A stretch of 64,000 nucleotides of DNA from Staphylococcus sp. CAG:324 (GCA_000433035.1 FR890815.1:85800-149799); one strand, 5' to 3'. Counted from the first letter of the stretch, positions 6,693 through 28,706 are shown. Numbers and translations: made by a program. The notes: generated by a model from the letters alone, not told the origin.

Positions 6693-6702
6693 ATAAAAAA
6701 CA

Positions 6703-6759: not shown

Positions 6760-6778
6760 TATATCAGTGAGGCCTAAG

Positions 6779-8333: not shown

Positions 8334-8347
8334 TATAATAAAAGTGT

Positions 8348-8436: not shown

Positions 8437-8455
8437 GACTTAGTTTTATGAAAGA

Positions 8456-8508
8456 AAAAGGTCTTAAAAAAATCTGAAATCAAGCATTTTAGAGTTTTTT
8501 AAGACTTT
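8456..8508 (+). terminator. long hairpin terminator after tRNA-Ser
   Basis: aaaaaggtcttaaaaaaa ... ttttttaagacttt, an inverted repeat with an inner hairpin tctgaaat/attttaga. Confidence 0.55.
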
Positions 8509-9067: not shown

Positions 9068-9592
9068 GTGGAAATTCAAATAAAATTAAATACAAGTATA
9101 TTAAGTCAAGCACTGAAAGTCTTTCATAAAAAGACAAAAATTTTTGCTATCTGTATGTCAATTTTTTTAATTGTTATAGGTGTTTTAGAAGCCTTTACTC
9201 TTATCAATCATTTTGATAGTTTTAGTTTGTTTTTAGCTCTTTTTTGTTTTCTTTTTGGTATTTTTTATATCGTTTATTTTATGTTGATTATCAATAGAAA
9301 TATGAAATTAAATATTAAGCAATTTGAACAAACCAATAATGGTACTGAAAGCGAAGTAGTATTTAAATTTACTGATAATGGAATTGAAAATAAAAGTCTA
9401 AATACAAATAATGTCGCATCCTTTCATTATTCAATGATTAGTAAATGTATGGATAGTCACGATTTTGTTTTTTTGATTACATCACTTAAACAATTTTTAT
9501 ATATACCAAAGAATCAATTGACTCTAGATGAATACAATGGACTGATTGAAATTGTTCAAAATTATGGCATAAAATATAAAAAAATAAAATAA
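9068..9592 (+). CDS. YcxB-like small membrane protein (GTG start)
   Basis: 174 aa. GAGGTGA RBS. Two N-terminal TM helices then a soluble domain, resembling the YcxB family. Confidence 0.5.
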   Translation: MEIQIKLNTSILSQALKVFHKKTKIFAICMSIFLIVIGVLEAFTLINHFDSFSLFLALFCFLFGIFYIVYFMLIINRNMKLNIKQFEQTNNGTESEVVFKFTDNGIENKSLNTNNVASFHYSMISKCMDSHDFVFLITSLKQFLYIPKNQLTLDEYNGLIEIVQNYGIKYKKIK

Positions 9593-9676
9593 ATTAGTAT
9601 TTATTTTATGTTTATTAAAATAATGTGTTATAATAGAAGTGCTATATTTTTATAGTAGAAGGAGGTACCTCAAAGT

Positions 9677-9874
9677 ATGGAAGGTACAGTTAAATTTTTC
9701 AACACTAGTAAAGGGTATGGTTTCATAAGTGAAACAACAACAAAAACGGATTATTTTGTTCACTTTACTGGTATTTCAGGTAATAATAAAACATTAACTG
9801 AAGGACAAAAGGTTACATTTGATGTTATGGAAGATTCAAGAACTGGTAAAACTAGAGCTTGTAATGTTAAATAA
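9677..9874 (+). CDS. csp: cold-shock protein (CspA family)
   Basis: MEGTVKFFNTSKGYGFI...YFVHF...GQKVTFDV. RNP-1/RNP-2 motifs. GGAGG RBS. Confidence 0.9.
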   Translation: MEGTVKFFNTSKGYGFISETTTKTDYFVHFTGISGNNKTLTEGQKVTFDVMEDSRTGKTRACNVK

Positions 9875-9908
9875 ATATTAAGTTGAACTGAAAAAACGAT
9901 CATTGATT

Positions 9909-9950
9909 GTAGGGTGTTTGCTGTAGAATAGCAACCCTACAACTCTTTGA
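9909..9950 (+). terminator. hairpin downstream of csp (weak T-tail)
   Basis: TTGTAGGGT...ACCCTACAA 9-bp stem, then CTCTTT. Confidence 0.35.
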
Positions 9951-10003
9951 CCAAATGGGAATAGATGAACTAAAAAAGTATTATAAAAACATATACAAAA
10001 TTT

Positions 10004-10034
10004 TGTTTACATTTGTAAACAGGGATTGTATAAA
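10004..10034 (+). promoter_or_regulatory. putative promoter with overlapping perfect palindrome TGTTTACA-tt-TGTAAACA
   Basis: 8-bp inverted repeat with 2-nt spacer (10004-10021) overlapping a TTTACA -35. 17-nt spacer, then TATAAA (10029-10034). Confidence 0.35.
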
Positions 10035-10117
10035 GTAGATTTCAAAGTTTACTTTCGATTTAAAAACCTCTTGCGATTGAGGATAGGTAAACTAAATTTT
10101 AAAATACATCTTAAATG

Positions 10118-10160
10118 CTCCTATGCCGAGTAGTTTTTGGACATAGGAGTTTTATTTTTT
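10118..10160 (+). terminator. rho-independent terminator (ends a ~120-nt ORF-less unit)
   Basis: CTCCTATG ... CATAGGAG stem followed by TTTTATTTTTT. Confidence 0.7.
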
Positions 10161-10256
10161 ACATTTGCAACCATACTACCTTTTCTTTCTATTTTATCTT
10201 TCTTTTTATTTTAGGTTTATAAAATATGATGTAAGATCGGTGGTTTCACTATAAAA

Positions 10257-10303
10257 AAGAATAGTTAAATATAAATCTATCTAACTATTCTTTTTTATTT
10301 TTT
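10257..10303. terminator. bidirectional hairpin terminator
   Basis: AAGAATAGTTA ... TAACTATTCTT with A-run before and T-run after. Confidence 0.6.
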
Positions 10304-10434
10304 CTAAAATAATGATTTTCTTACATAAAAAACAAAGATATTGTAATGAATGGACCTTTTTAACATTTTCTTACATAAACAAAGAAACCTTTTATAAGTA
10401 TTTCATAAATAAATAAAAAAAGTTAAAGAATACA

Positions 10435-10463
10435 TTGACAAAAAATGGTAATTTAGATATAAT
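10435..10463 (+). promoter_or_regulatory. consensus sigma-A promoter for the 10621 gene
   Basis: TTGACA, 17 nt, TATAAT (perfect consensus). About 150-nt leader to RBS AAAGGAGGAG. Confidence 0.6.
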
Positions 10464-10620
10464 TAAATTGAGTTCGGGGGAGCAAGAATATATAGGGCGA
10501 AAAACAGTATAAGAAAAAATATTGAATATCAATAAGCAAAAAACAAGTTCTTATTTATTCTGTATTTTTCCTCTTAACTCATAAAGATACACTAATATCA
10601 TATGAAAAGGAGGAGAAAAT

Positions 10621-11874
10621 ATGAAGAGTGTTAAGAAATTCTTTTTTGCTTTTTTTGCTTTGTTAATGAGTTTTGGTTTATTTAGTGCATTAACAAACGC
10701 AAAAGCTGATGTTGTCGTACAAGTTACACCATGGACATTGTCATTTGATAATGGTGATGTGTTCAATGTGATGGAGGATGATAATTCTCTTTCTGTTGTC
10801 GCGAATGCTTTTTCAGTTACCTATTTGGATACAACTGGAAATACAACTGGTGGATATTTTGATGTTTTTCGCGAATCATTACATATGGAAGGAATTGATC
10901 CATATGTAACAGATCAATATATCCAAAATGGACAAACGCTCACCTTTAATTTAGGTGGTCCAATCACACTTAGATTTCATTCGGCTGACCCAACTGGTGA
11001 GTACAAATGGTTTGAATTATACTTGTATCGTTCCATTATTGATACAAATCGAATTGTAACAAATTTAAATCCAGGTCAGTATTATTATAATCACTCTATT
11101 CGTTTTGGTGATTATGATAGAGTTCGTTATGGTGATCCTAATTTAATTTTCGAGATTTATAATTTAACTACAAATGAATTAAATACCATATATGGAAGTC
11201 AGTTTATGATTAATTTTTATATTGAAAAAGAAGGAGAATATGAGGTAACCGTTACAGATTTAAGAAAAGATGAAAGTAGAGTATATCGATTTGCGATTGA
11301 TCAGACAGCACCTGTCATTCAATTAGTAGAATGGGATTATATGGTTGAAACTCCTGTTCTTTCGGGTACTATTACAAGTGCAGGGATGAAGGTTGTTTAT
11401 GGAGATAATATTAAGGTTAATTCTATGACTTATCAATATAAACCATTTACATCAAGTCTTGTTGAAACAGGGACTGTTGACAATAATTTTATCTTTTGGC
11501 GAAAAGGTGAGTATGTAATAACCGTAACCGATATGATAGGGAATGTAACAACTCAAACATTTCAACTTACCGATTTTGATGTTGTAGCAGATCCAGATGG
11601 AGCTCAAACTTTAGGTACAGAAGTTACACAAAATGGGGGAGCAAAAGGGGGAACAATTCTTCACGTCGGCTATACTAGATGTTTATATTTAGGAGGTAAT
11701 GCTTCAAGCCAATCAAGATTAGACTATACTTTCACATCTAGTAATCCATCTATTGCAACGGTTAGTGAATATGGTACAGTTACAGGTTTGTCAGCTGGAA
11801 CAGTTGAAATTACTTGTGTTTTAAAGAGTAATCCTAGTAAGGTTTCTAAAATTGTTCTAACTGTATTACCATAG
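10621..11874 (+). CDS. secreted protein with C-terminal Big_2-like domain (paralog A)
   Basis: 417 aa. Signal peptide MKSVKKFFFAFFALLMSFGLFSALTNAKA. C-terminal SNPSIATVSEYGTVTGLSAGTVEITCV (Big_2-like). Confidence 0.7.
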   Translation: MKSVKKFFFAFFALLMSFGLFSALTNAKADVVVQVTPWTLSFDNGDVFNVMEDDNSLSVVANAFSVTYLDTTGNTTGGYFDVFRESLHMEGIDPYVTDQYIQNGQTLTFNLGGPITLRFHSADPTGEYKWFELYLYRSIIDTNRIVTNLNPGQYYYNHSIRFGDYDRVRYGDPNLIFEIYNLTTNELNTIYGSQFMINFYIEKEGEYEVTVTDLRKDESRVYRFAIDQTAPVIQLVEWDYMVETPVLSGTITSAGMKVVYGDNIKVNSMTYQYKPFTSSLVETGTVDNNFIFWRKGEYVITVTDMIGNVTTQTFQLTDFDVVADPDGAQTLGTEVTQNGGAKGGTILHVGYTRCLYLGGNASSQSRLDYTFTSSNPSIATVSEYGTVTGLSAGTVEITCVLKSNPSKVSKIVLTVLP

Positions 11875-11900
11875 AATTATATGAATAAAGGAGAAAAAAT

Positions 11901-13151
11901 ATGAAAAAAATATTTAAAATTTTTACAATGTTTTTTGCATTACTAGTTGGCTTTGGTTTAATGAATATCGTATCAAAGGTTAAAGCAAGTAGTGATGTAG
12001 TGACTACTCCGTGGACCTTATCTTTTGATAATGGACAGGTTGTAAATATAGTTGAAGATCAAAGTCCTATTTCAGTTGTTGCTAATGGTTTTTCGGTTAC
12101 ATATAATGATTTAACAGGAAAAACCAGTGGTGGATATTTTGATATTTGGGTTGAGTGTCCTGGTGTGATACCTTATGAACCAAGAATTGAAAATCAATAT
12201 ATTGCTAATGGAGAAACATTAACGTATCAAATGGGAGGAAATTTAGACTTTGTATATTATTCTTATAATGAAGAAATGCAATATATGGATAGAATATGGG
12301 TACCTTTTTTTGTAGATCGTTCTATTGTTTCATCTAATCGTATATATACAAGTTTGACAGCTGGAAAATACTATTATAGTGAAACCGTTTCTTTTTCTGA
12401 TTTAGATTATGGAAGAGATCCGGATTTAGATTTGGTTATTGAGGGGAGAAATTTAACAACGGGCGAATATTTAGAAAGTAATTATGGTTATATGCATATA
12501 AGTGATGAAGGTGAGTATGAAGTAACCATTCGCGATAACCGAAAAAATCATACAAAAACATATCGATTTGCCATTGATAAAACAGCACCAATGATATATT
12601 TAGTAGAATGGGATTATTTTGTTGAAACCCCTATGCTAGAAGGATCAATTACAAATGCTGGTATGAAAGTGATTTATGGTGATAATATTAAAGTCAATCA
12701 AATGACTTATCAATATAAACCTTTCAATTCAAATAAAGTTGAAACGGGAAGTGTGGAAAATAATTTTATCTTTTGGCGAAAAGGTGAATATGTGATTACT
12801 GTTGTTGATATGGTAGGCAAGAGTGTGTCAACAACCTTTACAATATCAGAATTTGATATTGTTGCAGATCCAGATGGAGCCCAAACTTTAGGTACAGAAG
12901 TTACACAAAATGGAGGAGCAAAAGGGGGAACAACCCTTCATGTTGGCTATACGAGATGCTTATATTTAGGTGGGGATGCTCCAAGTCAATCTAGACTAGA
13001 TTACACATTCACATCTAGTAACCCATCAATTGCAACGGTTAGTAATTATGGAACTGTTATGGCTAAAGGGGCAGGAACAGTTGTAATTACTTGTGTTTTA
13101 AAGAGTAATCCTAGTAAAGTTTCTAAGATTATTTTAACAATATTACCATAG
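11901..13151 (+). CDS. secreted protein with C-terminal Big_2-like domain (paralog B)
   Basis: 416 aa. Signal peptide present. C-terminal ~100 aa near-identical to paralog A. N-terminal half diverged. Confidence 0.7.
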   Translation: MKKIFKIFTMFFALLVGFGLMNIVSKVKASSDVVTTPWTLSFDNGQVVNIVEDQSPISVVANGFSVTYNDLTGKTSGGYFDIWVECPGVIPYEPRIENQYIANGETLTYQMGGNLDFVYYSYNEEMQYMDRIWVPFFVDRSIVSSNRIYTSLTAGKYYYSETVSFSDLDYGRDPDLDLVIEGRNLTTGEYLESNYGYMHISDEGEYEVTIRDNRKNHTKTYRFAIDKTAPMIYLVEWDYFVETPMLEGSITNAGMKVIYGDNIKVNQMTYQYKPFNSNKVETGSVENNFIFWRKGEYVITVVDMVGKSVSTTFTISEFDIVADPDGAQTLGTEVTQNGGAKGGTTLHVGYTRCLYLGGDAPSQSRLDYTFTSSNPSIATVSNYGTVMAKGAGTVVITCVLKSNPSKVSKIILTILP

Positions 13152-15357: not shown

Positions 15358-15397
15358 AAAAAACCTTGTAAACAATTTACAAGGTTTTTATTTTTTT
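15358..15397 (+). terminator. rho-independent terminator
   Basis: AAAACCTTGTAAA...TTTACAAGGTTTT + T-run. Confidence 0.75.
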
Positions 15398-15550: not shown

Positions 15551-15745
15551 TTACCATTTTTTTCCAATAAAGTCAATAATTTAGTTAAAATAGATGAATT
15601 TTAATATAAATTTAATGTTTTAATGATACATTTAAAAATTCGTAAAGGTATACCTTTAAAGACGTTTTATAGTATAATTAAAAAATTAAATTATCTTATT
15701 TATAATAAATAATAAAGTTTTTTAATCAAACGGGAAGGAAGAAAG

Positions 15746-16438
15746 ATGTCTGAAAAAATACAAAGTCAATTAAAGCAAAATATAACTAAATTTGGAGTGT
15801 TAAATATAATTGGGGTTATATTATTGGTTATATTTTTACCATTGGTTATTTTAAATTTGATATTCATTATTCAAGGATGGATTCATCCAGACAAGGTACC
15901 AATGATTTTTGATACTGCCCCATTAATTGTTGTATCAGATTCAATGACAATTGAAAAAGATGAAAGTGGAAATATCATTAGTGGAGCTTTTAATAAAAAC
16001 GATTTAATTTTTATTAAAAAAGTAGATCCTACTACTTTAAAAGAAGGAGATATTATTACCTATGTTGCAAAGGATGGTTCAATTGTAACCCATAGAATTT
16101 TTTTGAAGGGAACCACAGAAGATAAAAATGCTTCTGCTTTTGTAATGAAAGGGGATTATAATACTTCAATTGATCAAGATCCCATTTCTTATAACCAAGT
16201 TGTGGGTCTTTATAAAGGAAGAATTGCGGGAATTGGTGGGGTGGCTAATTTTCTTCAATCACCAATTGGTGTCATTGTTGTTTTAGGATTGCCATTGGCC
16301 TGCATTTTAATTATTGATTTAATTAAAAAGAAAAAAGAAAATCAACTTGCTAATTCAAAAAACGCCGAATTAGAAACTGAACTAGCACAATTGAAAGCAG
16401 AAAAGGCGCAAAAGGGATGGAAAGATTCATCTCGTTAA
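15746..16438 (+). CDS. sipW: SipW-type (eukaryote/archaeal-like, S26B) signal peptidase I with C-terminal coiled-coil extension
   Basis: TM, then VVSDSMTIEK (SGSMEP-like Ser box), VTHRI (His box), MKGDYNTS, C-terminal TM, then ELETELAQLKAEKAQ coiled coil. RBS GGGAAGGAAG. Confidence 0.7.
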   Translation: MSEKIQSQLKQNITKFGVLNIIGVILLVIFLPLVILNLIFIIQGWIHPDKVPMIFDTAPLIVVSDSMTIEKDESGNIISGAFNKNDLIFIKKVDPTTLKEGDIITYVAKDGSIVTHRIFLKGTTEDKNASAFVMKGDYNTSIDQDPISYNQVVGLYKGRIAGIGGVANFLQSPIGVIVVLGLPLACILIIDLIKKKKENQLANSKNAELETELAQLKAEKAQKGWKDSSR

Positions 16439-16510: not shown

Positions 16511-17107
16511 ATGAAAAAAAATAAAATTTTTACATTAGGATTAGTTATTACTTTTGTTTTTGTCGTATCACTAACTTTAGTATCTGGAACATTTGCTAAA
16601 TATACATCGACAGTAACTGGTAATGACAGTGCAAGCGTTGCTAAATGGGCTTTTCAATATGGAACAAGCGAAGGAACGTTATCAGATGTTGATTTATCAT
16701 CAACTAAAACAATTGCATTCAATTTATTTGATACTATTTTAGACACAGATGGAGATCCAGAAACTGATGTAGCAGCAAATAAAATTGCTCCAGGAACAAA
16801 GGGTAGTTTTCAATTTGTAGTCAAAAATACTTCTGAGGTTAATGCAACCTTTGACTTAACACTAGAAGTAGTAGGTGCACAAGTACCATTTGAATATACA
16901 ATTCAAGTAGATGAAGGAAGTGCTAGCGAAGCATCTACTACCGTACCTAGTTTAACTACTCAAGCGATTGATATGAATACTTCTGTAACTGTTACAATCA
17001 CTTGGGAATGGCCATTTGATGGTAACGATACGGCTGATACAACTTTAGGATTAGCAGCATCTACTGTAGAGGTTAATGCAACAATTGTATTTGTTCAAGT
17101 TGACTAG
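16511..17107 (+). CDS. small secreted TasA/camelysin-like protein with SipW-cognate-type signal peptide
   Basis: MKKNKIFTLGLVITFVFVVSLTLVSGTFAKYTST (compare TasA ..GGGTWAAFND). T/S/V-rich beta-type sequence. C-terminal VTITWEWPFDGNDTADTTLG..NATIVFV motif shared with neighbouring genes. Confidence 0.55.
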   Translation: MKKNKIFTLGLVITFVFVVSLTLVSGTFAKYTSTVTGNDSASVAKWAFQYGTSEGTLSDVDLSSTKTIAFNLFDTILDTDGDPETDVAANKIAPGTKGSFQFVVKNTSEVNATFDLTLEVVGAQVPFEYTIQVDEGSASEASTTVPSLTTQAIDMNTSVTVTITWEWPFDGNDTADTTLGLAASTVEVNATIVFVQVD

Positions 17108-17290: not shown

Positions 17291-18139
17291 ATGAAGAAAA
17301 AATATAAAAGTGCCCAGCGCTTATTAGGTTATCATGTATATTTCAACACAATCAGAGATTCTAATGGCCAAATAGTTGCCAAAATCAAAAGACATCAAAT
17401 TGTTTCCCATGATGATTTATTTTTTAAATCCGTTCTTAGTTCTAATACAATAATTGATGTAACTGCTAAGGAATTAAAGAATAGGAAGATCAAATATACC
17501 CTTTATAATGAACAAACTAAAGAAATATTTGCTAAGGCCGATCGTTTTTTTAACATCTATACCCTTGAAAATAATTATTTAGGTTCTTTTTTTAATTCAA
17601 CAAAGTCAATTCTCTTTATTATAAGATGTACTATTTTTGCTATTTTAGCACTTTTTATTAGTTTTGTTAGCCTACAAACGACTGGCAATCCAACAAGACC
17701 TAAAGAAATTGTGATTAGTGAAAGAGATGGGGACATTATTTTAGATGAATGGAATATTTTCGGTAGCCAAATAGGGGATAAAATTTTATATCCGGGAAAA
17801 ATGGGTGAATATTATTTTAGTATTACCAATCCTAATTCCAAAGATATTATACTATCAATCGAATTTACTGAAGATAATAAAGATACACTTCCTATTGTAT
17901 ACCGGTTGGTTTGTAAGAATGAATATCTTTGTGGTGAAACAAACAATTGGATTGATATTGATGAATTGTATGCTAATGAAATTTTAATTCAATCTAATCA
18001 AACCATACAATTTAGACTAGATTGGAATTGGCAAGATGTGGATAATGATGAATTTGAGACAGAATTAGGAATAGATAATAATGCAACCTATACCCTCTTT
18101 GTGGCCATTACTTCAATACTTATTTATCCAAATCATTAA
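17291..18139 (+). CDS. membrane-anchored protein with C-terminal TasA-like domain (TapA-like anchor/accessory candidate)
   Basis: Strong RBS AAGGAGGG. ~105-aa cytoplasmic N-term, one TM, then an extracytoplasmic domain. It ends IQFRLDWNWQDVDNDEFETELG..NATYTLFV, which aligns with the C-terminus of the 16511 gene. Confidence 0.5.
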   Translation: MKKKYKSAQRLLGYHVYFNTIRDSNGQIVAKIKRHQIVSHDDLFFKSVLSSNTIIDVTAKELKNRKIKYTLYNEQTKEIFAKADRFFNIYTLENNYLGSFFNSTKSILFIIRCTIFAILALFISFVSLQTTGNPTRPKEIVISERDGDIILDEWNIFGSQIGDKILYPGKMGEYYFSITNPNSKDIILSIEFTEDNKDTLPIVYRLVCKNEYLCGETNNWIDIDELYANEILIQSNQTIQFRLDWNWQDVDNDEFETELGIDNNATYTLFVAITSILIYPNH

Positions 18140-18165: not shown

Positions 18166-19347
18166 ATGGATAAAAAGACAACAAAAAATAAAATATGTAT
18201 TTTACTTGGCTTGCTGATATTGGCAACTGGTCTTGCCATTAGTGGTAAGATAGGTAGATCAACTACATTTGCTAAATATAAAACCATTATTGATTCAAAT
18301 TCTAGTACCTCAACTATTGCTAGGTGGGATATTCGAACGATAAAAAAAGATAAAACTGAAGTGAGTATGCTTGGTGAGGGGTTTAAATTATCACAAGCAG
18401 GTGAGAATGGCAATTGGTTTTTTACGATTTATAATTTATCAGATGTAAAAGCACAAATTGCAAAGGGATCTAAAATTCGTTTACGCCTTGATAGTGACAA
18501 TTTTATCAATAAACAAAATTTAACATGGAATTTTTTATCAGGAAATAACCCCATTACTTTTTCAATCTATTTATATCATTGTGATATTGCCCAAATTGTA
18601 AGTTATCAAAAACTAGATTCTTCTGAAATCATTTCGTTAGATGAATATTGCAATTTGACTTTAGAAGAACAAGCGAATTATCAAGAAAGAATTGATGAAA
18701 GTATAGATAAAACGTTGTTACTTCAAACCTCAGAAGAATTGATATTGAATAAAGCCATTGAGGAAAAAGATAATGGGAGTATTACTTATTTTTATGCTGA
18801 AAAGGACTTGAGTAGTTTAGCTCAAGAACTCATTGCTTTGGATATGGAAGGATACAAAACCTTTAGAGTGAATTGGAGTGTATCAGAAAGTAGTGCTGAT
18901 GTGGATGGAATTCAAGCAAAATATCAAGCTTATCGACTATCAGATACCAATATAGGCTTTGATGGTTTAGTACAAACATATGAAATTCAAGGCAAAACGT
19001 ATTATCTTGGTTATAATGAATATGATTATTTTGATTATTTAAACTATATATCACAAACGGGTGTAAATGGTGAACCAGCTTTTGTTTTTCCTAATACTAA
19101 TGGTATTGTTGGACAAACGATGAAGGTTGCTTATTCTAATCTTACAACTTCTCAAAAAACGCAAATTGAAAATTATGTGGCAGGAAATACACTAGAAAGT
19201 TTAGAAAAAGTTGTTGAAAGAAATACATATGAAATGTATGAAACATTTTTACACGATAAAATAGATTTTGAAAATAGTTTAGGATATCTTCAATATGGAC
19301 TATATTGTAGTATCATTTTTGATTTAAAAATAGAACAGGTAGACTAG
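18166..19347 (+). CDS. secreted protein with SipW-cognate-type signal peptide
   Basis: ..LLILATGLAISGKIGRSTTFAKYKTI. Internal FRVNWSVSESSADVDG segment resembling the shared motif. RBS AAGGAG. Confidence 0.5.
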   Translation: MDKKTTKNKICILLGLLILATGLAISGKIGRSTTFAKYKTIIDSNSSTSTIARWDIRTIKKDKTEVSMLGEGFKLSQAGENGNWFFTIYNLSDVKAQIAKGSKIRLRLDSDNFINKQNLTWNFLSGNNPITFSIYLYHCDIAQIVSYQKLDSSEIISLDEYCNLTLEEQANYQERIDESIDKTLLLQTSEELILNKAIEEKDNGSITYFYAEKDLSSLAQELIALDMEGYKTFRVNWSVSESSADVDGIQAKYQAYRLSDTNIGFDGLVQTYEIQGKTYYLGYNEYDYFDYLNYISQTGVNGEPAFVFPNTNGIVGQTMKVAYSNLTTSQKTQIENYVAGNTLESLEKVVERNTYEMYETFLHDKIDFENSLGYLQYGLYCSIIFDLKIEQVD

Positions 19348-19351
19348 TCCA

Positions 19352-19879
19352 ATGTTAAAGATAATTTATAAATTCATTTCTTTTTTTCTTGCATTTTTCT
19401 TTGTTATTCTTTTTCTTTTCTTATCAGTGTATTTGATAAAAAGAATAATTGATAAAGATCAACCAACTACTGTTTGGGGCATTGCTTTTTTTGAGGTATC
19501 TACAGGCAGTATGGAACCAGAAATAATGATTGGTGATTTGATCATTACTAAAAAGATAAAAGATGATCAGTATCAAGTAGGCATGATTGTTACATATTTG
19601 CCACCAAATGCTAAAACACCAGTTACCCATCAAATTGTAAAGCGTGATGGTAATATTATTACAACAAGAGGAATAAATGAAGAAACAAACAATATTGATG
19701 ATGAACCTTTTGATGTATCATGTATTATTGGTAAAAAAATAGGAATATGGCACCAATATAATCGATTTGCCAATTTCATTAAATCTCCATTTGGCATTAT
19801 TGTTTTTGTTTTGGGCGGATTTTTAATTATTGAGGGGTATGTATATATTGATAAAAAAATAAAAAAAGTAATCAAGTAA
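19352..19879 (+). CDS. sipW: SipW-type signal peptidase I (second copy)
   Basis: TM, then VSTGSMEPEIMIGDLIITKK (canonical SipW SGSMEP box), VTHQI, TTRGINEE, C-terminal TM. 175 aa, same architecture as B. subtilis SipW. Confidence 0.8.
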   Translation: MLKIIYKFISFFLAFFFVILFLFLSVYLIKRIIDKDQPTTVWGIAFFEVSTGSMEPEIMIGDLIITKKIKDDQYQVGMIVTYLPPNAKTPVTHQIVKRDGNIITTRGINEETNNIDDEPFDVSCIIGKKIGIWHQYNRFANFIKSPFGIIVFVLGGFLIIEGYVYIDKKIKKVIK

Positions 19880-19910: not shown

Positions 19911-20531
19911 ATGATGAAGAGAAAATATTTGCTCATTTTATATTTAGTTTTTGTATGTGTAGTTTTAATCACATCATCAACTCTAGCTAAATATATTCAC
20001 ACATCTACAACTAAAACTAGTTTTACAATTGGTGATAAATTATATTTTAATTATGAAAGATCGGATTTATTTAGAAATAATCAGTTAATTGTAGGATATG
20101 AAACCGAATATGATGATGATGGCATCATCCATAAAAGAATTGAAACAATGAATGTAATGCCAGGAGATGATTTAAGTTACCATTTTTATGTCAGCAATTA
20201 TAATTCAAAAACATTAGATTATAATGGGTTAGTAGGCGAGTTTCTTCCTATTACCACCGCAATGATTTCACTTCCTGTAAAAGGGCAAACGTATGATGTC
20301 AATTGTACAATAAGTTTTAGGCAAGTACCTACAGATGGAAGTGTAGCAACAACACAATTTTCATTGTTGACTAATAAGATAGCTTTACCACCATATGAAC
20401 AAGAAAAGGTAAAATATGAATTTAAAATCAATTGCATTTTAGATGATCAGTTATCAAATACAACAAGTGATGACTATTTTGGAGCAACTTTATCCATTTA
20501 CTTATTTATCAATGCTGCATCTAGTATTTAA
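19911..20531 (+). CDS. small secreted TasA-like protein with SipW-cognate-type signal peptide
   Basis: ..LITSSTLAKYIHTST. C-terminal YEFKINCILDDQ..DDYFGATLSIYLFI resembles the shared C-terminal strand motif. RBS AAAGGAG. Confidence 0.5.
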   Translation: MMKRKYLLILYLVFVCVVLITSSTLAKYIHTSTTKTSFTIGDKLYFNYERSDLFRNNQLIVGYETEYDDDGIIHKRIETMNVMPGDDLSYHFYVSNYNSKTLDYNGLVGEFLPITTAMISLPVKGQTYDVNCTISFRQVPTDGSVATTQFSLLTNKIALPPYEQEKVKYEFKINCILDDQLSNTTSDDYFGATLSIYLFINAASSI

Positions 20532-20554: not shown

Positions 20555-21733
20555 ATGATAGAAAGAAAAATATTTAATATGCGGTTACATGTTTTACTGA
20601 TGTTAGTATTTTTATTTGTTATTCTTTTACTTGTCAATATATCATTCAATCCGACTTCATCAAGATATATTAAACAAGAAAAAGATGAGATTTTGGCTTT
20701 ATATACTTCTCTTTATTTTAATAGTGATAGAAATCATATGAGTATGTCATTAGAAGATAACAAAGGGTATGTGAATTTTAAATTGATGAATTATATTGGT
20801 GAAGATGTTACGCAAAGAGATATTGAATATATAATTGAAAAACCTTCTAAATTTTATAACTCTAAAGGCGAAGTTATGGAAAACCCTAGTGGTGAGGAAG
20901 ATTTGTATGTTTTAGATGTATGGGGAAAACCTAAAAAAATTGGTAATGATACATATAAATATCAATCAACAATTGTTCAAAATGATGGAGAAATAAGCGA
21001 TGGGGGAAATTATACTTTTCTATATGAAAAACTGGGTTCTAGTGCCGTGGGCAAAACCCATAATTTAACAATTCAGATGGTTAGAGAAGAAAGTACTGAA
21101 ATGACAAGAGTAGAAAATGTTTCTGTGGTAGTTCAACTCATCAAACCTTATCGAGAAGTTTTTATTATCGATATTCTTGTTTCTAATCGATTAATTGTTT
21201 TTTCTCAAACTGTGAGTGAAGTTTTTGAAACACAAAATCAAGTTCTTTATATTCAATCAAGTAATATCTATTCACATTATAAAAGCAATGGTGAATATTA
21301 TCCGAGAACAGCAAATATCAATGGTGAGGTTTATGAATATACTTCTAAAGCATTTTTGGTTACAATTTATTGGGATCATGTCTTGTTAAATCTTCATATG
21401 TTAGATGATATTCATATAGGTATTGGTGAAAACCCTAGTAATTTAGATATTACAAAACCTTATATTGTTGATGTTTACACTCAGAAAGACCGCGGATATT
21501 TAGAAATATATATTCCTCAAGCTTCCAATTTTCATTTGAATTTTTTACCAACCACAACTGCTTATACAATAGATGCGAAAATTGAAGTATGTGTCAGAAA
21601 AAATGATGGTTTAGAAACCTATGTTTTATATGATGAACAGTTTGGAGGATATGAACATATTAAAAAGGCTAATTTGCCTAATAAAAATGATGAAAATGTA
21701 GATCAAGAAGTTGTGAATCTTGTTACGAAATAA
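20555..21733 (+). CDS. secreted protein, SipW-cognate-like N-terminus
   Basis: Hydrophobic segment then NPTSSRYIKQ (same [ST]-x-[AS]-[KR]-Y pattern). 392 aa. RBS GAAGGAGG. Confidence 0.5.
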   Translation: MIERKIFNMRLHVLLMLVFLFVILLLVNISFNPTSSRYIKQEKDEILALYTSLYFNSDRNHMSMSLEDNKGYVNFKLMNYIGEDVTQRDIEYIIEKPSKFYNSKGEVMENPSGEEDLYVLDVWGKPKKIGNDTYKYQSTIVQNDGEISDGGNYTFLYEKLGSSAVGKTHNLTIQMVREESTEMTRVENVSVVVQLIKPYREVFIIDILVSNRLIVFSQTVSEVFETQNQVLYIQSSNIYSHYKSNGEYYPRTANINGEVYEYTSKAFLVTIYWDHVLLNLHMLDDIHIGIGENPSNLDITKPYIVDVYTQKDRGYLEIYIPQASNFHLNFLPTTTAYTIDAKIEVCVRKNDGLETYVLYDEQFGGYEHIKKANLPNKNDENVDQEVVNLVTK

Positions 21734-21754
21734 AAAAGAAAGGAGATAGCAACG

Positions 21755-24700
21755 ATGAGAAAAATTTTTACAATTGGCTCAATAGTGATGTCGGCTTTCA
21801 TCGGAATCGTAGTGATTTGTCTGATTGCTTTTATCATTAAACCTCAAGAGAAAGTAAATGCGGCCGAAGAATATACCCTAACGGTAAACAAAGTTTCTAC
21901 AATTAGTGTGTATGTTAGCGGTCAAGGAGTAAAACTAAAGGATAGTACTTTAGATGTGGATACCTATATTGTAGAGGAAAATACAGAAGTTACGATTAGA
22001 GCAATTAATGAATCAAGAATTTTTCAAAGTTGGGTTATTACAGATGATAATAATCAAACTTTACCTCAAAATGGTGCTACTACTCATATCTTGTCTTTTA
22101 TTCCTAATTGTAATATGCATATTGCAACGATGAGAAAAGATGCCACAACAGAAGATTATGGTAGATATATGTATAATCGTTTTTTAATTGAAACCGCACA
22201 AGATTTAATTGATTTACAAGATATTATTGCTTATGGAAACAATGTCAAAGATACTGATACAAGCATCATTGAAAAATATGATCATTTTTATGATAAATTT
22301 AGTGAATATGCGAATTTAACCACCAATAAAGAAAAGGCTAATTTTATTATCAATCATAATTTATATGATCGCCTTCAAACGGGATACTTTTTAGTTGCCA
22401 ATAATTTATCTTTATATGATGAAAATTTTACAGGAATTGGCAATAAAAACAGACCATTTAGAGGTGTTATGTGTGGACTTAGTAATAATGAAATCTCAAG
22501 TATTTTTTTAACATTAAGTACTACGGAGGCTAGTGATGAACATTATTATGGTCTTTTTGGTTATCTAGATAAAGAAGCAGTTGTTAGAAATTTGAATATT
22601 ACAACTAGCATTGGTATTAGTAAAAATGAGTCTATTAGTCAAAACACAATTTATGCAGGGGGTCTAGCAGGGCAAATCAATGAGGCTTTACTTTCTAATG
22701 TGACAGTAAAATTAAGTACAGGTATTCATGCTAATGATGCTACCATTTATGTTGGAGGGATTGCCGGAAAGATGAATGGCGGACTTGATGAAATGAATAC
22801 AGTCAAATATGATGGCAATCAAGGAAGTTGGATTATTCAATCAAACTCTAGTCATAATATATATGTCGGTTTAGTATCAGGATATGGAACAAATGTCTAT
22901 ATCAATCGTTTTGATGTGGATACATCGGGACTTTCAATTGATGTAAGCAATTTTAAGATGGGAAATTACAATACCAATAGTAATATTTATGCGGGAAATC
23001 TTTTTGGTTATTTAGACATCACAAAGGATACAAGAATCAATCATATTCATTTTAATGGTAAACAAAAACAAACACTCTATGCTAGTATGAATATTGGCAA
23101 TGCATATGTCGGAGGATTAGTAGGATATGTATATGCGAATGCTAATTTAGATGTCGGAGTTGTTCAATTTGATAATAGTGATAGTGAAAAATCCCTATTT
23201 ACAGCTCAATCATTAGATAGCAATAGTCAAGCCAATGTATATACTGCTGGTCTTTTTGGTTATGTGTTAGGGAATTATTTAAATGCGAATGAGGATTTTA
23301 AAAATGCCATTACAACTACAGAAATTGATGGGAAAATAGTATATAACTATCGATATTTGTTTAATGGTAACTATCAAATCCAATCTTTACAAAATGGTAA
23401 AGAAGACAAAAACAATACTTTTGGTAAAAGTATTGCGGGGGGGATTGTTGCGAAGGGTTTGTTTAACATAAATGGTCTTTCGGAAAATCAAAGAAGTGAA
23501 ATCTTTTTATCTAGTGAACAATCATCTTTTCAAGTTAGTGCTATACAGACAAGTTCCGCTAATCATATAGAGGGGAAACAAATTGATATAACAACGGATA
23601 AGGAGCACTGTATTGCAGGATTAGTATTTGGTGTAATATCCAAAGAAACTTTTGCGTATACCTTTAAAAATATAAATATCTATGCTAATCATGCGGATGT
23701 TTTAGCAATTAGAGAAATAGGGTCTTTAGGAATCGGTGATCTATCAACTGGTGGTTTTATCGGTTATTCGATGGGAACAAGTTATTCAAATATAGCATTG
23801 TATTTAAATAATGGATCAATTCAATCAAGAAGTTTATCTTATGAAACTAAAAATGCTCAAGTTGATACCAATAATACATATTGTGGTGGCTTTATTGGTG
23901 ATTTTAGAGGACCAAATGCTACAATGCATAATATTAAGATAGACGGGTATGATTTTAAAAATCAAAAACAAATGGGGACAACAACGAAAATCGAATCCAT
24001 TCAAAACACTATTCCAGGGGGAGGAGATTATAGAGGAGAAAACTATACTGGTGGTCTAATTGGGCGAATTTATCAAGTATCTCGTGTTGAGGCATCATCC
24101 TATATTGGTTCAAATTTAGATACAGATAGCATTCAAATGCAAGGTCATGAAAGTCCAGATAGTGCTTTTTGTGGTGGTTTAATTGGATTTATTAAAAATA
24201 ATGCTAAGACAGATACGGAAAAAATCATCCTTTCTAATTGTATGGTTAAAAATGCTTTAATAGATGGAAGGGCAACCACAACAATTATATATGGAAATCC
24301 TGATATATATGTTTCGGGTTTAGTGGGAGCATGTTATACTTCAGATTCATTTAATACAGTATATATTGAAAGTTCTAACGTATATCATAGCACTATTCAA
24401 TGTTTGGGCAATGAACGAATTGAGGCTTTTGCATCAGGTATTTTAGGAGCAGCCACTTGGGCGGGAACGCATTATATAAATGATTGTTATGTATATGGAT
24501 CTAAAATTGTGGCAACTTCTAATTCCGCCACTGATTTGGCAACTCCACGTAAAGATAATGCCTATGTTGCCGGAATTTGTTCACATCTAACATCAACAAC
24601 AATGTATGTCAATCATTGTGTAGTTGTAGACTCTTTGTTAGATTCAATCTCTCAAAATGGTGATTCATTTGCAAGTGGAATGGTTTATCATTATCAATCG

Positions 24701-27700
24701 AGTAATATACAAATAGAAAATTGTTATACAAACTCCTATCTCAATACTGCAAGTAATAATTATCCAATTACAAATAGAGGTAGTTGCAATAGAAGTTATT
24801 ATGTTTTGCAAAATGTAACTCATGTTTCTTCTGATTTAGGAATTGCCTTAGATTTTTCAAGACAACAAGTAAGTGGTAAAAATGTGCGTATTACAAGTAT
24901 TTTAACTGGATTGAATAATGATGATGGAATGGGAATAAAAATATTGCCAGTTTTAAAATCGAATGAATATTTTAACATAAACAATGGTGGTACTAGTAAT
25001 ATCGTTTCGCTTGATTATATTGGACAAGATAATGATCGAAGGACAAATATTATCAATATTTGGATCAATGCCAAAGAAGAAGGTAGCAGTAGGAGTCCAA
25101 ATGAATACGATGACTTTGAGGCAATGTATAATGATGGATGGTTCGATTTAGGTGAAATCATTATTTATAATCAAGAAAAAGATACTAGTAATGAAAAGAA
25201 TAATATTGAATTTTTGGAAACATATTATATAGATCAAGATAATAAGTATGTATATGATAGAAAGACCTCAGATGGGAAAACGTATTTAAAGAATGTAAAT
25301 TATCCTTTTAATTTAATTCAAAGCGGTTATGAAGAAATAGGGAGTAGTGAGGTAATCAAGGATATTTCCGTCATTAGAGAATATATTGTAAAAATATATG
25401 ATAATATGCCTTATATGCAATTCCAATTTAAAGTGAAAAAAGAAATCCCTATATATTTAAATACTTTATGGGATTCTAATGGCAATGAAACAATTGTAGA
25501 AAATGATTCCATCATTGGAATTGGAGAATTCAACTATACGTATGAAATTGTCGATGCATATACTGTTTATACCATTACATGGGTTCCTAATCAATTATTA
25601 AAAGAAGATCAAACTTTTTATTTATCTTTTAAAATCGGTAGTGGTAATTTTTATGATGAATCTTGTCTAAAGTTTAGTTTAAAAGCAAACAAAAAGAAGT
25701 TAGAAGGGGTCACTTTTGCGGAATACACACCACCTATCAATTATTATTTAGCAGGTATTGATGAAACGTTGGGTGTAACGAAAGATAATCCTTATTTATT
25801 AAGAGCAGGATCAATTACTAAATTTATTCCAATCATTCAAAAAGTAAATGATTTTGATAATACGCAATATTATGATGATACAAATGCTGAGTATGTAACA
25901 TATGAATCAACATATGGTACAATAAAAAGCAGTGGTGATTTAATTGTTAATCAAGTTTCGAATCAAGTCTATCAAATCACAGTTACGTTAAAAGATGACC
26001 CAACTCAAAAACAAGTCATTTATTTTAAAGTAATTGATCAGTATAGTGTTTCTTATACTACAATAGGAGCCAATATGGAGTGTATAACTTACGCTTCAAG
26101 TAGCAGTGATTACTATTTTAAAATTGTTTCAAAAGCGAATTATAGTAGCATTCCTAATCAATTTATTATCAATATTGGCAGTCAAACTTATGATTTATTA
26201 AATGATTTTAATGGAATTAGAGTTTATGATGATAATATGAATCAAATAGATACATTTATTGATAATGTAAAATATTATGAAATATATGTTCCTAGTAATT
26301 TAATAACAGGAGAAATGAATATATCTATTGTTTTTCCTATTATATATACAATAACATTAGATTTACAATGTGGTGATTTTAACCATCATTTTATTGAATC
26401 CGAACAAAAAGTATATCGATTAGTTGAGAATACTAGCTTTAAAGATTTCTTTACAAGCGATTTAATCAATGAAATCAATGATTGGGTTCAAAGTGCTACC
26501 CTTTTTGGTTATGTGTTTACGGGATTTTATTTGGTTTCTAATGCGAATAGTGAAAATGCTTATGGTGAAAGTTTAGATTCAATTCAAGAATCTGATATGA
26601 AGATTACTGCCTCACTTACTTTTTATGCAAGATGGAGTTTTTTAATTGAATTAGTAGAAGCTCCTGGTACTAAAATAGTAACTAGTTTTCCAGATTCATA
26701 TATGAAAGATTATTATGAGGAAAATCTGCTTAATCAAACCATTCAAATTCCCATTAACAATAATAGGGGATATGTATTTACAGTTAGCAAAGAGGATAAT
26801 TTTGTTGGCGAGGCATATGTTGAGGCTTTTATAATAAATTTAATTGGTGAGGAAAAACAAATTACAGAAATACCAATTGAAAAATATTTTGATAATATGT
26901 ATTTATATTATATCGCTCCTGAAAAAATAACAGGATATTTAGTTATTGCTACTTCAATTAGCAATTCAGAGTTAATTGTGGGAGAAAATACAGCTTCAGT
27001 TACAGAAGAAATTTTACCAGAGGATGGTATTTATACTTTTAAATATATTGTAAATCATAAAAATACAAATGAGGAAACTTCATATATTTATAATAGTGGA
27101 ATTGAAGAAAATCCGTCTAGCAACCTTTCCTTAAATAAAGATTTTCTTTTACAATTTAAACAACAAAGTTTTGATGGTAACCACACGAATATTATAGATA
27201 GAACCTTAGATTTAGGTACTGTTATTGATGTTTATTATCGAAAAATGGTAAATGGAGTGGAGACAGATAGAATTGTAGGAACTTATAAGGTAAAAGATGA
27301 AAAGATATCCCAATTACAATTAAGTGCTTTTACGCTTTGGGATTTACAAACACCAGCCTTTCCTGTTGAAACATTTCAAGATTTTCTAGGTAATGAGGAA
27401 GAAGTTTCAGAAATATATTATTTTGTCATTACTCCACCTAATGGTATATGTAGTAAAGTAGAAAATGAAATTATAAATTATATTATTTATGCGGGATATT
27501 ATAATTCGACTACTTTTGACTTTGTTGAAGGAATTAGAAATAATGAAGGGTTTGCTAATATTCCGATTGAAGATACTTTAATAGATCAAGTTATGATTGA
27601 GTCAAGTAAGCAAAGCAGAATATATTCAGTTACTCCTTCTCGACATACTGATTTGATAAAAGATGAAGAGAATAGTTTTACATTTATTGATGAAACAACC

Positions 27701-28459
27701 TATCATCTTTTTGATCTTGTGGCAACTGATGCCAAAATTCAAAATGGAATATTCTATTTGTTTGATGATGAAGATCAAAATAGTATAATTGTTTCTAAAG
27801 AAATGAAATTTGGATTAAATGCTTTAAGGTTAACTTTAGGATATAATTTAGGTAGTGTAGCTATTTATGGTAGTGGGGATGGTATCCTTTGGCAGTTCGT
27901 TGATACCATTTATGTTGATACATTAGAAAATAAAATTTATGAAGTTGATTTTAGTTCTTTTGATTATAATTATTTTAAAATTGATAATACCTCATACAAT
28001 GAAATTCATTTGAAAGAAGTAGAAGTTATTGCTAAATCAAATGGTATGCGTTATCAAACAGATTTTAGTAATCAATCCCATTTTGTTATACATGAAAACT
28101 ACATCACTTATACCTTGAATACAAAATTACAAGGTGATATTCGACATGATGGCAAAACTTTTATGCTTGCTACTCAGTTTATAGAAAAGAATGGGATTTG
28201 TGAAAGTATGGGCAAGATTCAATTAAGCGTTATGATTGATGATCAAATCATTTTTGTTGATGCCATAGATGATGATGCTGTAGGAAAGAATGTAGTTTAT
28301 TTTAATTTAAGTTCCATCTTACAAACGTATAGTCTAGAACAAATAAAGTTTTCCATTATTATGCCAGAATCTATATCGTTATATGCTGTTCAATTATTAG
28401 AATCTACTACGATTTATAAGCCTGCAATGTCAGAGGTAAGAAAAACAATAATCAATTAA
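21755..28459 (+). CDS. giant (2234 aa) surface adhesin-like protein: GLUG-motif repeat region, Listeria-Bacteroides repeat, C-terminal beta-sandwich domains
   Basis: Signal-anchor then VNAAEEYT. More than 14 GG[LIV][AIV]G repeats (YAGGLAGQ, YVGGIAGK, YVGGLVGY, STGGFIGY, YCGGFIGD, YTGGLIGR, FCGGLIGF, YVSGLVGA ...) between roughly nt 22600-24600. Flg_new-like GYVFTGFY...FYARW near nt 26520-26640. RBS AAAGGAG. Confidence 0.7.
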   Translation: MRKIFTIGSIVMSAFIGIVVICLIAFIIKPQEKVNAAEEYTLTVNKVSTISVYVSGQGVKLKDSTLDVDTYIVEENTEVTIRAINESRIFQSWVITDDNNQTLPQNGATTHILSFIPNCNMHIATMRKDATTEDYGRYMYNRFLIETAQDLIDLQDIIAYGNNVKDTDTSIIEKYDHFYDKFSEYANLTTNKEKANFIINHNLYDRLQTGYFLVANNLSLYDENFTGIGNKNRPFRGVMCGLSNNEISSIFLTLSTTEASDEHYYGLFGYLDKEAVVRNLNITTSIGISKNESISQNTIYAGGLAGQINEALLSNVTVKLSTGIHANDATIYVGGIAGKMNGGLDEMNTVKYDGNQGSWIIQSNSSHNIYVGLVSGYGTNVYINRFDVDTSGLSIDVSNFKMGNYNTNSNIYAGNLFGYLDITKDTRINHIHFNGKQKQTLYASMNIGNAYVGGLVGYVYANANLDVGVVQFDNSDSEKSLFTAQSLDSNSQANVYTAGLFGYVLGNYLNANEDFKNAITTTEIDGKIVYNYRYLFNGNYQIQSLQNGKEDKNNTFGKSIAGGIVAKGLFNINGLSENQRSEIFLSSEQSSFQVSAIQTSSANHIEGKQIDITTDKEHCIAGLVFGVISKETFAYTFKNINIYANHADVLAIREIGSLGIGDLSTGGFIGYSMGTSYSNIALYLNNGSIQSRSLSYETKNAQVDTNNTYCGGFIGDFRGPNATMHNIKIDGYDFKNQKQMGTTTKIESIQNTIPGGGDYRGENYTGGLIGRIYQVSRVEASSYIGSNLDTDSIQMQGHESPDSAFCGGLIGFIKNNAKTDTEKIILSNCMVKNALIDGRATTTIIYGNPDIYVSGLVGACYTSDSFNTVYIESSNVYHSTIQCLGNERIEAFASGILGAATWAGTHYINDCYVYGSKIVATSNSATDLATPRKDNAYVAGICSHLTSTTMYVNHCVVVDSLLDSISQNGDSFASGMVYHYQSSNIQIENCYTNSYLNTASNNYPITNRGSCNRSYYVLQNVTHVSSDLGIALDFSRQQVSGKNVRITSILTGLNNDDGMGIKILPVLKSNEYFNINNGGTSNIVSLDYIGQDNDRRTNIINIWINAKEEGSSRSPNEYDDFEAMYNDGWFDLGEIIIYNQEKDTSNEKNNIEFLETYYIDQDNKYVYDRKTSDGKTYLKNVNYPFNLIQSGYEEIGSSEVIKDISVIREYIVKIYDNMPYMQFQFKVKKEIPIYLNTLWDSNGNETIVENDSIIGIGEFNYTYEIVDAYTVYTITWVPNQLLKEDQTFYLSFKIGSGNFYDESCLKFSLKANKKKLEGVTFAEYTPPINYYLAGIDETLGVTKDNPYLLRAGSITKFIPIIQKVNDFDNTQYYDDTNAEYVTYESTYGTIKSSGDLIVNQVSNQVYQITVTLKDDPTQKQVIYFKVIDQYSVSYTTIGANMECITYASSSSDYYFKIVSKANYSSIPNQFIINIGSQTYDLLNDFNGIRVYDDNMNQIDTFIDNVKYYEIYVPSNLITGEMNISIVFPIIYTITLDLQCGDFNHHFIESEQKVYRLVENTSFKDFFTSDLINEINDWVQSATLFGYVFTGFYLVSNANSENAYGESLDSIQESDMKITASLTFYARWSFLIELVEAPGTKIVTSFPDSYMKDYYEENLLNQTIQIPINNNRGYVFTVSKEDNFVGEAYVEAFIINLIGEEKQITEIPIEKYFDNMYLYYIAPEKITGYLVIATSISNSELIVGENTASVTEEILPEDGIYTFKYIVNHKNTNEETSYIYNSGIEENPSSNLSLNKDFLLQFKQQSFDGNHTNIIDRTLDLGTVIDVYYRKMVNGVETDRIVGTYKVKDEKISQLQLSAFTLWDLQTPAFPVETFQDFLGNEEEVSEIYYFVITPPNGICSKVENEIINYIIYAGYYNSTTFDFVEGIRNNEGFANIPIEDTLIDQVMIESSKQSRIYSVTPSRHTDLIKDEENSFTFIDETTYHLFDLVATDAKIQNGIFYLFDDEDQNSIIVSKEMKFGLNALRLTLGYNLGSVAIYGSGDGILWQFVDTIYVDTLENKIYEVDFSSFDYNYFKIDNTSYNEIHLKEVEVIAKSNGMRYQTDFSNQSHFVIHENYITYTLNTKLQGDIRHDGKTFMLATQFIEKNGICESMGKIQLSVMIDDQIIFVDAIDDDAVGKNVVYFNLSSILQTYSLEQIKFSIIMPESISLYAVQLLESTTIYKPAMSEVRKTIIN

Positions 28460-28513: not shown

Positions 28514-28542
28514 TTGACAAATTAAAAAAAATATGTTATAAT
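28514..28542 (+). promoter_or_regulatory. textbook sigma-A promoter TTGACA-17-TGnTATAAT
   Basis: TTGACA 28514-28519; extended -10 TGTTATAAT 28534-28542. Confidence 0.65.
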
Positions 28543-28625: not shown

Positions 28626-28662
28626 AACCTAACTTTTAATTAGATTAAAGGTTAGGTTTTTT
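28626..28662 (+). terminator. hairpin + T-run ~110 nt downstream of the promoter, upstream of ftsW/spoVE
   Basis: AACCTAACTTTTAAT / ATTAAAGGTTAGGTT then TTTTTT. Confidence 0.6.
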
Positions 28663-28706
28663 CATAATAATGGATTCTTATCATATAATGAAGTGGTGAA
28701 ACAAAT

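Follow-up and report, generated by a model that had tools for sequence, protein, structure and literature searches.

The DNA analyzed here is a 64,000-nt stretch from Staphylococcus sp. CAG:324 (GCA_000433035.1 FR890815.1:85800-149799), referred to below as the window, with positions counted from its first letter. It has a G+C content of ~29%, and its genes all run in one direction. Our subject is the gene at 21755-28459 on the plus strand, whose product of 2234 amino acids (aa) we call the giant protein, together with the cassette of SipW-type signal peptidase and small secreted protein genes that it closes. The open reading frame (ORF) had been reported in a preliminary description of the window made from the sequence alone, and it is real and intact: the ~6.7-kb frame is uninterrupted, its stop codon is included in the coordinates, and an AAGGAG ribosome-binding site (21740-21745) lies 9 nt before the ATG. 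No Rfam family was matched near the gene. The source lineage belongs to the uncultured Mollicutes-like gut Bacilli, with UMGS116 as its nearest relative. Gut metagenomes of humans and animals commonly contain this lineage.

The genes upstream, all on the plus strand, begin with sipW1 (15746-16438), which encodes a SipW/archaeal-type signal peptidase I (TIGR02228, 63.6 bits with a cutoff of 51.85). This protein is extended by an additional C-terminal transmembrane (TM) segment and by a tail that is charged and coiled-coil-like (ELETELAQLKAEKAQK). It is followed by p198 (16511-17107), a small secreted subunit with the signal end GTFAKY and the motif APGT.G.F.F...N.SEV, which is the candidate major fiber subunit, and by p282 (17291-18139), in which a cytoplasmic N-terminal part of ~110 aa is joined through one TM segment to a p198-like domain at the C-terminus (hhalign probability 98.3). 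Cassettes of both Bacilli and Clostridia keep this membrane-anchored subunit paralog, which could be the base or anchor of the fiber. Next come p393 (18166-19347), secreted, with the signal end TTFAKY and an N-terminal p198-like domain (hhalign 98.0); sipW2 (19352-19879), the second peptidase of the same type (TIGR02228, 63.2 bits, same cutoff); p206 (19911-20531), a secreted p198 paralog (hhalign 88.6) with the signal end STLAKY; and p392 (20555-21733), secreted, with the signal end TSSRY, which always stands directly upstream of the giant gene and in relatives often overlaps it. A strong terminator at 15359-15389 and a promoter-like site at 15678-15706 lie ahead of sipW1, the gaps within the cassette measure 4-183 bp, and a consensus promoter is found 55 nt past the stop codon of the giant gene. 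The signal ends of the secreted small proteins all fit [ST]-[FLS]-[AS]-[KR]-[YF]. Signal ends of the TasA/CalY class include GGTWAAF and GGTFAYF, and we take the cassette signal ends, GTFAKY and its like, to resemble this SipW-cognate class. The p198 family has 685 relatives in a profile search.

The order sipW-p198-p282-p393-sipW-p206-p392-giant was found at every locus with sufficient upstream DNA, in 15 GTDB species, and the loci of Borkfalkia-type Clostridia carry a six-gene core that corresponds one-to-one with the cassette by profile hidden Markov models (HMMs). Because the flanking genes vary between genomes, the cassette is a conserved unit. Thus the position of the giant gene as the terminal gene of a SipW locus, as first described, holds well: two TIGR02228 peptidases lie upstream, the giant gene is always last, and the synteny is strict. 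There are also related SipW/p198 cassettes that lack a giant gene, such as L021, which ends in a 666-aa protein with the signal end LAYSKY; since such cassettes exist, the giant protein is a lineage-specific terminal addition. The number of SipW peptidases per cassette differs as well, with two here, one in Clostridia-type cassettes and three in L021. In one metagenome-assembled genome (MAG; L014:12550-15304), sipW1-p198-p282 are located downstream rather than upstream of the giant gene, which may be a rearranged or circularly permuted cassette. In an Anaeroplasmataceae MAG (L015:5051-12010), two neighboring ORFs (5051-11311 and 11315-12010) take the place of the giant gene and are followed by another sipW; the split is either genuine or an error of assembly. 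Downstream of another giant gene, a protein joins a p198-like domain to a true Flg_new repeat at its N-terminus (L008:14876-15649; Pfam E 1.3×10−12). A phage or mobile origin of the giant gene was dropped as a candidate: its base composition matches that of its flanks, and those neighbors of the cassette that were identified, in this window as in the relatives, are ordinary cellular genes (tgt, ftsW/murG/murB, tRNA synthetases), with no integrase or phage gene among them.

Homologs of the giant protein were sought in a database of 5.8 billion proteins. About 70 full-length relatives were found (2200-3100 aa, 33-86% identity), and ~50 more distant ones, of roughly 2000-2100 aa, align in two stretches (the N-terminal 1000 aa, and aa ~1340-1810) at ~25% identity; in length and architecture, the relatives resemble the giant protein. 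The 90% cluster containing the giant protein has 710 member sequences. The hosts are the Mollicutes UMGS116 (92% identity), Acholeplasmatales, Anaeroplasmataceae and "Bacilli bacterium" MAGs, from human, goat, sheep and chicken, and the distant subgroup includes Candidatus Borkfalkia (Clostridia). Nearly all of these ~120 relatives are without a Pfam domain and are annotated as "hypothetical," and none of 120 carries a precomputed PF07581 (GLUG) match. A direct domain search of the giant protein (Pfam, with the whole protein and nine segments, and NCBIfam) gave nothing significant; weak matches to GREB1_2nd, GvpA and DUF4278 were dismissed as noise. Sequence searches of the PDB with the giant protein alone, the full-family profile, the most conserved module and the p198 family gave no meaningful matches. 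Mean identity across the family differs by region, from 36-44% in the beta-helix half, through a minimum of 20-28% at aa 1000-1300, to a maximum of 53-64% at aa ~1600-1800.

The protein begins with a signal/anchor region (21755-21862, aa 1-36; this and all features below are on the plus strand), in which a 25-residue hydrophobic helix is followed by KPQEKVNA↓AEE, a type I signal peptidase site of the AxA type (the arrow marks the putative cleavage). AlphaFold2 (AF2) gives a single helix at aa 2-28 and disorder at aa 29-36. Relatives show VAA↓A, TEA↓A, LNA↓E and RSA↓E at the corresponding place, and at least 80% of the relatives keep the alanine of the putative site. The giant protein has no lipobox cysteine, which excludes signal peptidase II. 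The sequence VNAAEEYT had been thought to suggest SipW rather than signal peptidase I or II. VNA↓A is, however, an ordinary (-3,-1) type I site, and a T-F-A-K-Y-type motif ([ST]-[FL]-[AS]-[KR]-[YF]) is absent from the giant protein and all its relatives, whereas every small secreted protein of the cassette has it. Because the giant protein alone among the secreted cassette proteins is without the class motif, its processing by SipW is unsupported, and the sequence of its signal site does not discriminate between SipW and a housekeeping type I peptidase. We predict that the protein is exported and cleaved at VNA↓A. A sequence scan found no LPXTG-like motif, in agreement with the preliminary description, and no C-terminal anchor signal: the protein ends in ...KPAMSEVRKTIIN, its one hydrophobic segment is aa 1-28, and the C-terminus has no hydrophobic segment followed by a charged tail.

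Confident models of the two halves of the giant protein were obtained with AF2 from 34-row alignments. The signal region is followed by a small beta-sandwich domain (21869-22138, aa 39-128) with the conserved pattern Y.ITV.K.STVSVYVSG.GV and a predicted local distance difference test score (pLDDT) >90, and then by a helical cap or linker (22196-22381, aa 148-209). The remainder of the N-terminal half is modeled as a right-handed parallel beta-helix (22385-24814, aa ~211-1020). The model of aa 1-1100 has a pLDDT of 88.8 and a predicted template modeling score (pTM) of 0.85, and contains a continuous beta-helix of ~800 aa. Along it runs an array of 17 GLUG-like turn motifs of the form aromatic-x-[GAS]-G-[LIVFM]-x-[GA] (22544-24688, aa ~266-977), each of which falls at a strand-turn-strand junction in the model. 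The strict pattern [FYWAC]xGG[LIVF][VAI]G occurs six times (0.01 expected), and the looser [GAS]G[LIVF][LVAIF]G 10 times (0.18 expected); none of 5000 shuffles reached either count. An HMM made from the protein's own motif instances recovers, within aa 288-941, 10 strong units (23-30 bits each) and three to four weak ones. Reading in register with 70 relatives brings the count to 17 units, spaced 32-64 aa apart, with central glycines 92-100% conserved in most of them. The earlier count of at least 14 copies at ~22.6-24.6 kb was therefore correct, and the repeats lie far beyond chance.

The family to which these repeats belong needed more care. Pfam, which the preliminary description had itself named as the test for its labels, confirmed neither GLUG nor Flg_new, and both were therefore examined by other routes. 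For GLUG, a profile of aa 225-1000 was made from nine sequences of both subfamilies and searched in the 5.8-billion-protein database. It retrieved, besides fragments of the family, nine unrelated proteins (P0129-P0137; E 2.8×10−22 to 3.9×10−5), eight of which carry PF07581. A Pfam scan finds strong GLUG matches in six of them, mostly at 100-168 bits, with Flg_new in one and the N-terminal region of M26 immunoglobulin A1 (IgA1) proteases also in one, and the regions aligned to the profile contain these Pfam GLUG matches. Because the profile matches true GLUG proteins over their GLUG regions, the beta-helix of the giant protein is a divergent relative of the GLUG type. By the thresholds of these families, the giant protein is not a Pfam GLUG or Flg_new member. 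It is a remote GLUG homolog, and the labels are carried at the level of remote homology and fold; the original GLUG assignment thus stands as homology and fails as Pfam membership.

In structural comparison, the ranking of the matches is informative, although none is significant. In a Foldseek search of the PDB with the N-terminal half, the top match is 3n6z, the putative IgA1 protease BACOVA_03286 (E 0.06, not significant; probability 0.91; low template modeling score), and the list, all of it nonsignificant, includes the pneumococcal and Gemella IgA1 proteases (6xja, 7uvk) amid generic right-handed beta-helices such as GH28 enzymes, lyases, autotransporter passengers and tailspikes. A sequence-profile search of the PDB with the giant family found nothing. 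Known GLUG beta-helix proteins, such as the IgA1 protease ZmpA of Streptococcus pneumoniae in its N-terminal part (6XJA) and BACOVA_03286 (3N6Z), have the same aromatic-x-G-G-[LIVF]-x-G turns, on a right-handed beta-helix like the one modeled for the giant protein, and the giant and GLUG proteins share the start signature F.GIG...PF.G...G......GLFG. The differences are in scale and company: the beta-helix of the giant protein, at ~800 aa, is roughly three times that of IgA1 protease (residues 781-1070; PMC7695701), its units are spaced 32-64 aa apart whereas the Pfam GLUG model is 28 aa long, and the M26 protease domain of IgA1 proteases is absent. In gut microbes, GLUG, which has no established function, accompanies Flg_new in proteins of the adhesin-like kind (PMC9723798), and in the pneumococcal IgA1 protease the N-terminal beta-helix gates access of the substrate (PMC7695701). 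The giant protein indicates that GLUG-type beta-helices extend beyond the reach of the Pfam model.

The C-terminal half is all-beta and modular in the AF2 model of aa 1040-2234 (pLDDT 85.8, pTM 0.54), with one helix of 14 residues at aa 1568-1581. Variable beta-sandwich modules (24932-26389, aa ~1060-1545), delimited by AF2, Foldseek and conservation, are followed by a putative Flg_new-like unit, by a family-specific module, and by C-terminal beta-sandwich or jelly-roll modules (27143-28456, aa ~1797-2234) that end in a conserved KPAMSEVR strand. Foldseek returns many significant but very loose matches to tandem immunoglobulin (Ig)-like and carbohydrate-binding module (CBM) arrays, among them factor VIII, a sialidase with CBM32, Ig-like domains of PrgB, Gram-positive pilins and the S-layer protein Sap. 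Because these are multidomain superpositions with root-mean-square deviations of 30-90 Å, we describe the half as a tandem beta-sandwich array only. Of the Ig/discoidin-like segments first proposed here, the succession of beta-sandwich modules is borne out by AF2 and Foldseek, and the specific discoidin call is not.

The putative Flg_new-like unit (26405-26656, aa ~1551-1634) consists of a strand, the 14-residue helix, a GYVFTGFY strand (aa 1585-1592) and an FYARW strand (aa 1623-1627), with the two motifs at nt 26507-26635. The signature was correctly noted at the outset, and it is conserved in at least 80% of the relatives. Its similarity to Flg_new falls below every threshold: a surrogate HMM made from 12 true Flg_new repeats of relatives scores a weak 5.3 bits at aa 1584-1620, and hhalign of the family region with true Flg_new repeats places GY.F.GFY...FYARW on GY.F.GW...A.W with a probability of 44.6% (P = 2.3×10−4, 34 columns). 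The Flg_new, or Listeria-Bacteroides, repeat (the InlB B-repeat) has the signature G-Y-x-F-x-G-[FW]-Y ... [FL]-Y-A-[RK]-W also seen in the giant protein, and the strand-helix-strand-strand order is compatible with it. The true families have tandem repeats of ~65-70 aa, whereas the giant protein has one unit in which the first half of the repeat is unaligned. True Flg_new arrays do occur in the relatives P0011, P0052 and P0054, in C-terminal extensions past residue ~2260 that the giant protein lacks. Conservatively speaking, aa ~1551-1634 may be a single degenerate Flg_new-like unit, a name that we apply only tentatively.

The most conserved part of the protein is the module that follows (26657-27139, aa ~1635-1795; mean identity 53-64%), which is marked by the motifs FLIEL.EAPGT, PIN..GY.FT, EKY..NMYLY, TS.SNS..IVGENT and PEDG.YTFKY.VNH. 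When 1.84 billion cluster representatives were searched with a profile of aa 1580-1800, only 74 proteins were retrieved, nearly all of them giants, always with the module at about residues 1500-2200, and fragments; no relative was found in the PDB. We regard this module as the leading candidate for a conserved protein-protein contact; it may be a docking site. The profile also weakly matches arrays of SH3_5 repeats (P0181), which we take as similarity at the level of hairpins; SH3_5 was rejected because Pfam detects none in the giant protein. Two other large proteins were noted in the same search: P0157 (4232 aa) has one full conserved module at residues 1901-2103 plus Flg_new repeats, and P0159 (5007 aa) matches positions 171-219 of the profile in 35 repeated stretches.

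SipW operons may end with a protein that has an adhesion domain and is not TasA (PMC11580942). In Clostridium perfringens, the last gene of the operon sipW-bsaA-bsaB-bsaC encodes BsaC, a VWA protein (PMC11580942). Like the giant protein, BsaC is encoded last in a SipW operon, after genes of TasA-like subunits, and is a secreted accessory protein that is no paralog of the subunits and has a protein-interaction fold (PMC11580942). The two proteins differ in that the giant protein, with 2234 aa, is built of a beta-helix and beta-sandwiches and has no detectable homology to BsaC, and its cassette differs from the BsaC operon in that it contains two genes for SipW along with four or five for subunit-like proteins. 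By analogy, BsaC would be the closest functional precedent. The TapA/TasA/SipW system of Bacillus subtilis resembles the cassette in that a SipW-type peptidase stands beside small secreted proteins, and p206 weakly matches the signal region of TapA. The B. subtilis operon, however, has no giant protein, and the cassette subunits give no Peptidase_M73/TasA match in Pfam, NCBIfam or PDB profile searches. The giant protein is neither an LPXTG protein nor a TasA paralog.

From these observations, we lean, by a little better than an even chance, toward the reading that the giant protein is exported through Sec and serves a SipW-dependent fiber system as an accessory protein, adhesin-like or matrix-binding in character. 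The giant gene would be cotranscribed as the last gene of a cassette encoding SipW peptidases and paralogous small secreted subunits, and its product, led by the N-terminal signal/anchor helix, would be secreted via Sec to the surface or matrix. The mature protein would present the small beta-sandwich and helical cap, then the rigid beta-helix of ~800 residues with its 17 GLUG-like turns, then a chain of about nine beta-sandwich modules that includes the Flg_new-like unit and the strongly conserved, family-only module. It would act with the fiber made by the upstream genes, in parallel to BsaC; both adhesion and a physical association with the fiber are here proposed.

Several results weigh against this reading. 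The whole protein has no match to Pfam GLUG, and aa 600-1000 reach 9.7 bits (E 1.7) with a cutoff of 20.5; no Foldseek match of the N-terminal half in the PDB is significant, the best having E 0.06; and Pfam Flg_new (PF09479, cutoff 27 bits) gives no match up to E 10 with segments over aa 1500-1760. Pfam, NCBIfam and PDB profile searches detected no ligand-binding domain of known specificity. Seven polar residues conserved in both subfamilies within the beta-helix (R653, E654, S695, Q750, D758, E762 and D850) could, by their conservation, mark a catalytic or binding site. On the side of the fiber, neither the cassette proteins nor 11 relatives of p198 show Peptidase_M73/TasA homology by Pfam, nor was any found by NCBIfam or PDB profile, and none among 120 listed of the 685 p198-family profile matches carries a TasA-family (Peptidase_M73) annotation. 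Since cassettes without a giant gene exist, the fiber does not require the giant protein. Finally, because the giant protein has no SipW-cognate motif and no module homologous to the subunits, its incorporation into the fiber can only be proposed.

In all-against-all comparison by hhalign, no two modules of the giant protein resemble each other, nor does any resemble a small subunit. The tip position proposed for it in the preliminary description is not demonstrated by these results, and no module is homologous to the fiber subunits. In its strict form, this idea makes the giant protein a fiber-tip adhesin, the first subunit of the fiber, with aa 1635-1795 as the acceptor of the putative N-terminal donor strand of a small subunit, as in FimH of chaperone-usher pili. 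Among the secreted cassette proteins, only the giant protein lacks the donor-type [ST]-F-[AS]-[KR]-[YF] N-terminus, as is expected for a strand-accepting terminal subunit, its most conserved part is a family-specific module that is nearly confined to giants, and it is strictly linked to the subunit genes. Nevertheless, the absence of sequence similarity to the subunits counts against it, and the AF2 monomer gives every module with high confidence as a complete beta-sandwich, without a sign of an open groove. We consider such a tip adhesin unlikely, although it fares better than the explanations below.

A further step along the same line would make the six- to eight-gene cassette an unrecognized class of SipW-dependent appendage, present in RF39/Acholeplasmatales-like Bacilli and Borkfalkia-type Clostridia, with the giant protein carried on the fiber through aa 1635-1795 accepting a donor strand from a subunit. 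This is a speculative proposal with the odds well against it. If true, the parts of the appendage would be the SipW peptidase(s), the membrane-anchored subunit paralog, the secreted subunit paralogs, p392 and the giant protein, and it would represent a Gram-positive, chaperone-free analog of the FimH-type tip adhesin in gut Firmicutes with reduced genomes.

Alternatively, the giant protein could be held in the membrane by an uncleaved N-terminal helix (a signal anchor) and project through the wall as a stalk, independent of any fiber. A hydrophobic segment of 25 residues has the length of a TM segment, AF2 shows one helix at aa 2-28, and the protein has no other anchoring signal. Yet a small-x-small site with the conserved alanine follows the helix in all relatives, from VNA↓A here to VAA↓A, TEA↓A, LNA↓E and RSA↓E, and cassette subunits that are clearly of the cleaved type have hydrophobic regions just as long; a stalk thus seems as doubtful as the appendage class. 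Most improbable is an extracellular beta-helix enzyme (a glycan hydrolase or lyase, or a protease scaffold) that acts on host mucin or the cell's own matrix with the sandwiches as CBMs: GH28 polygalacturonases, PL6 lyases, capsule depolymerases and a GH110-like galactosidase are on the Foldseek list of the N-terminal half, the C-terminal half matches a sialidase with CBM32, polar residues at aa 650-850 are invariant in both subfamilies, and GLUG helices are present in M26 IgA1 proteases (P0135; PMC7695701), but the structural matches of the beta-helix are nonsignificant (E ≥0.06, with glycanases at 0.066 or worse), and no catalytic family by Pfam, NCBIfam or PDB profile search, no HExxH and no M26 catalytic domain was found.

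An accessory protein of a SipW-dependent fiber therefore remains the reading that we favor. A cassette of 12.8 kb with a last gene of 6.7 kb is a large investment for a genome that is likely small, and it is conserved in two classes of Firmicutes. The analysis provides a first structural and evolutionary annotation of an unnamed family that stands in databases as "hypothetical" and domainless, and the module at aa 1635-1795 offers a concrete target for asking how large accessory proteins are coupled to SipW/TasA-type fibers.

Other features of the window were observed in passing. The promoter past the giant gene (28514-28542) fits the sigma-70 consensus perfectly (TTGACA-17-TATAAT, preceded by a TG). 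Behind it lies a strongly structured element of ~115 nt (to 28668; minimum free energy −35.1 kcal/mol, z −4.9), which has no Rfam match and ends in a terminator-like hairpin at ~28626-28665, ahead of ftsW (ATG at 28707). This element may be a leader or attenuator, or a small RNA, that controls ftsW-murG-murB. The window also encodes other likely surface proteins. One of 1008 aa (49046-52072) carries a bona fide Flg_new repeat (E 4×10−15), and Big_2 domains are found in a 1257-aa protein (1260-5033) and in an adjacent pair of paralogs of ~416 aa each (10621-11874 and 11901-13151).

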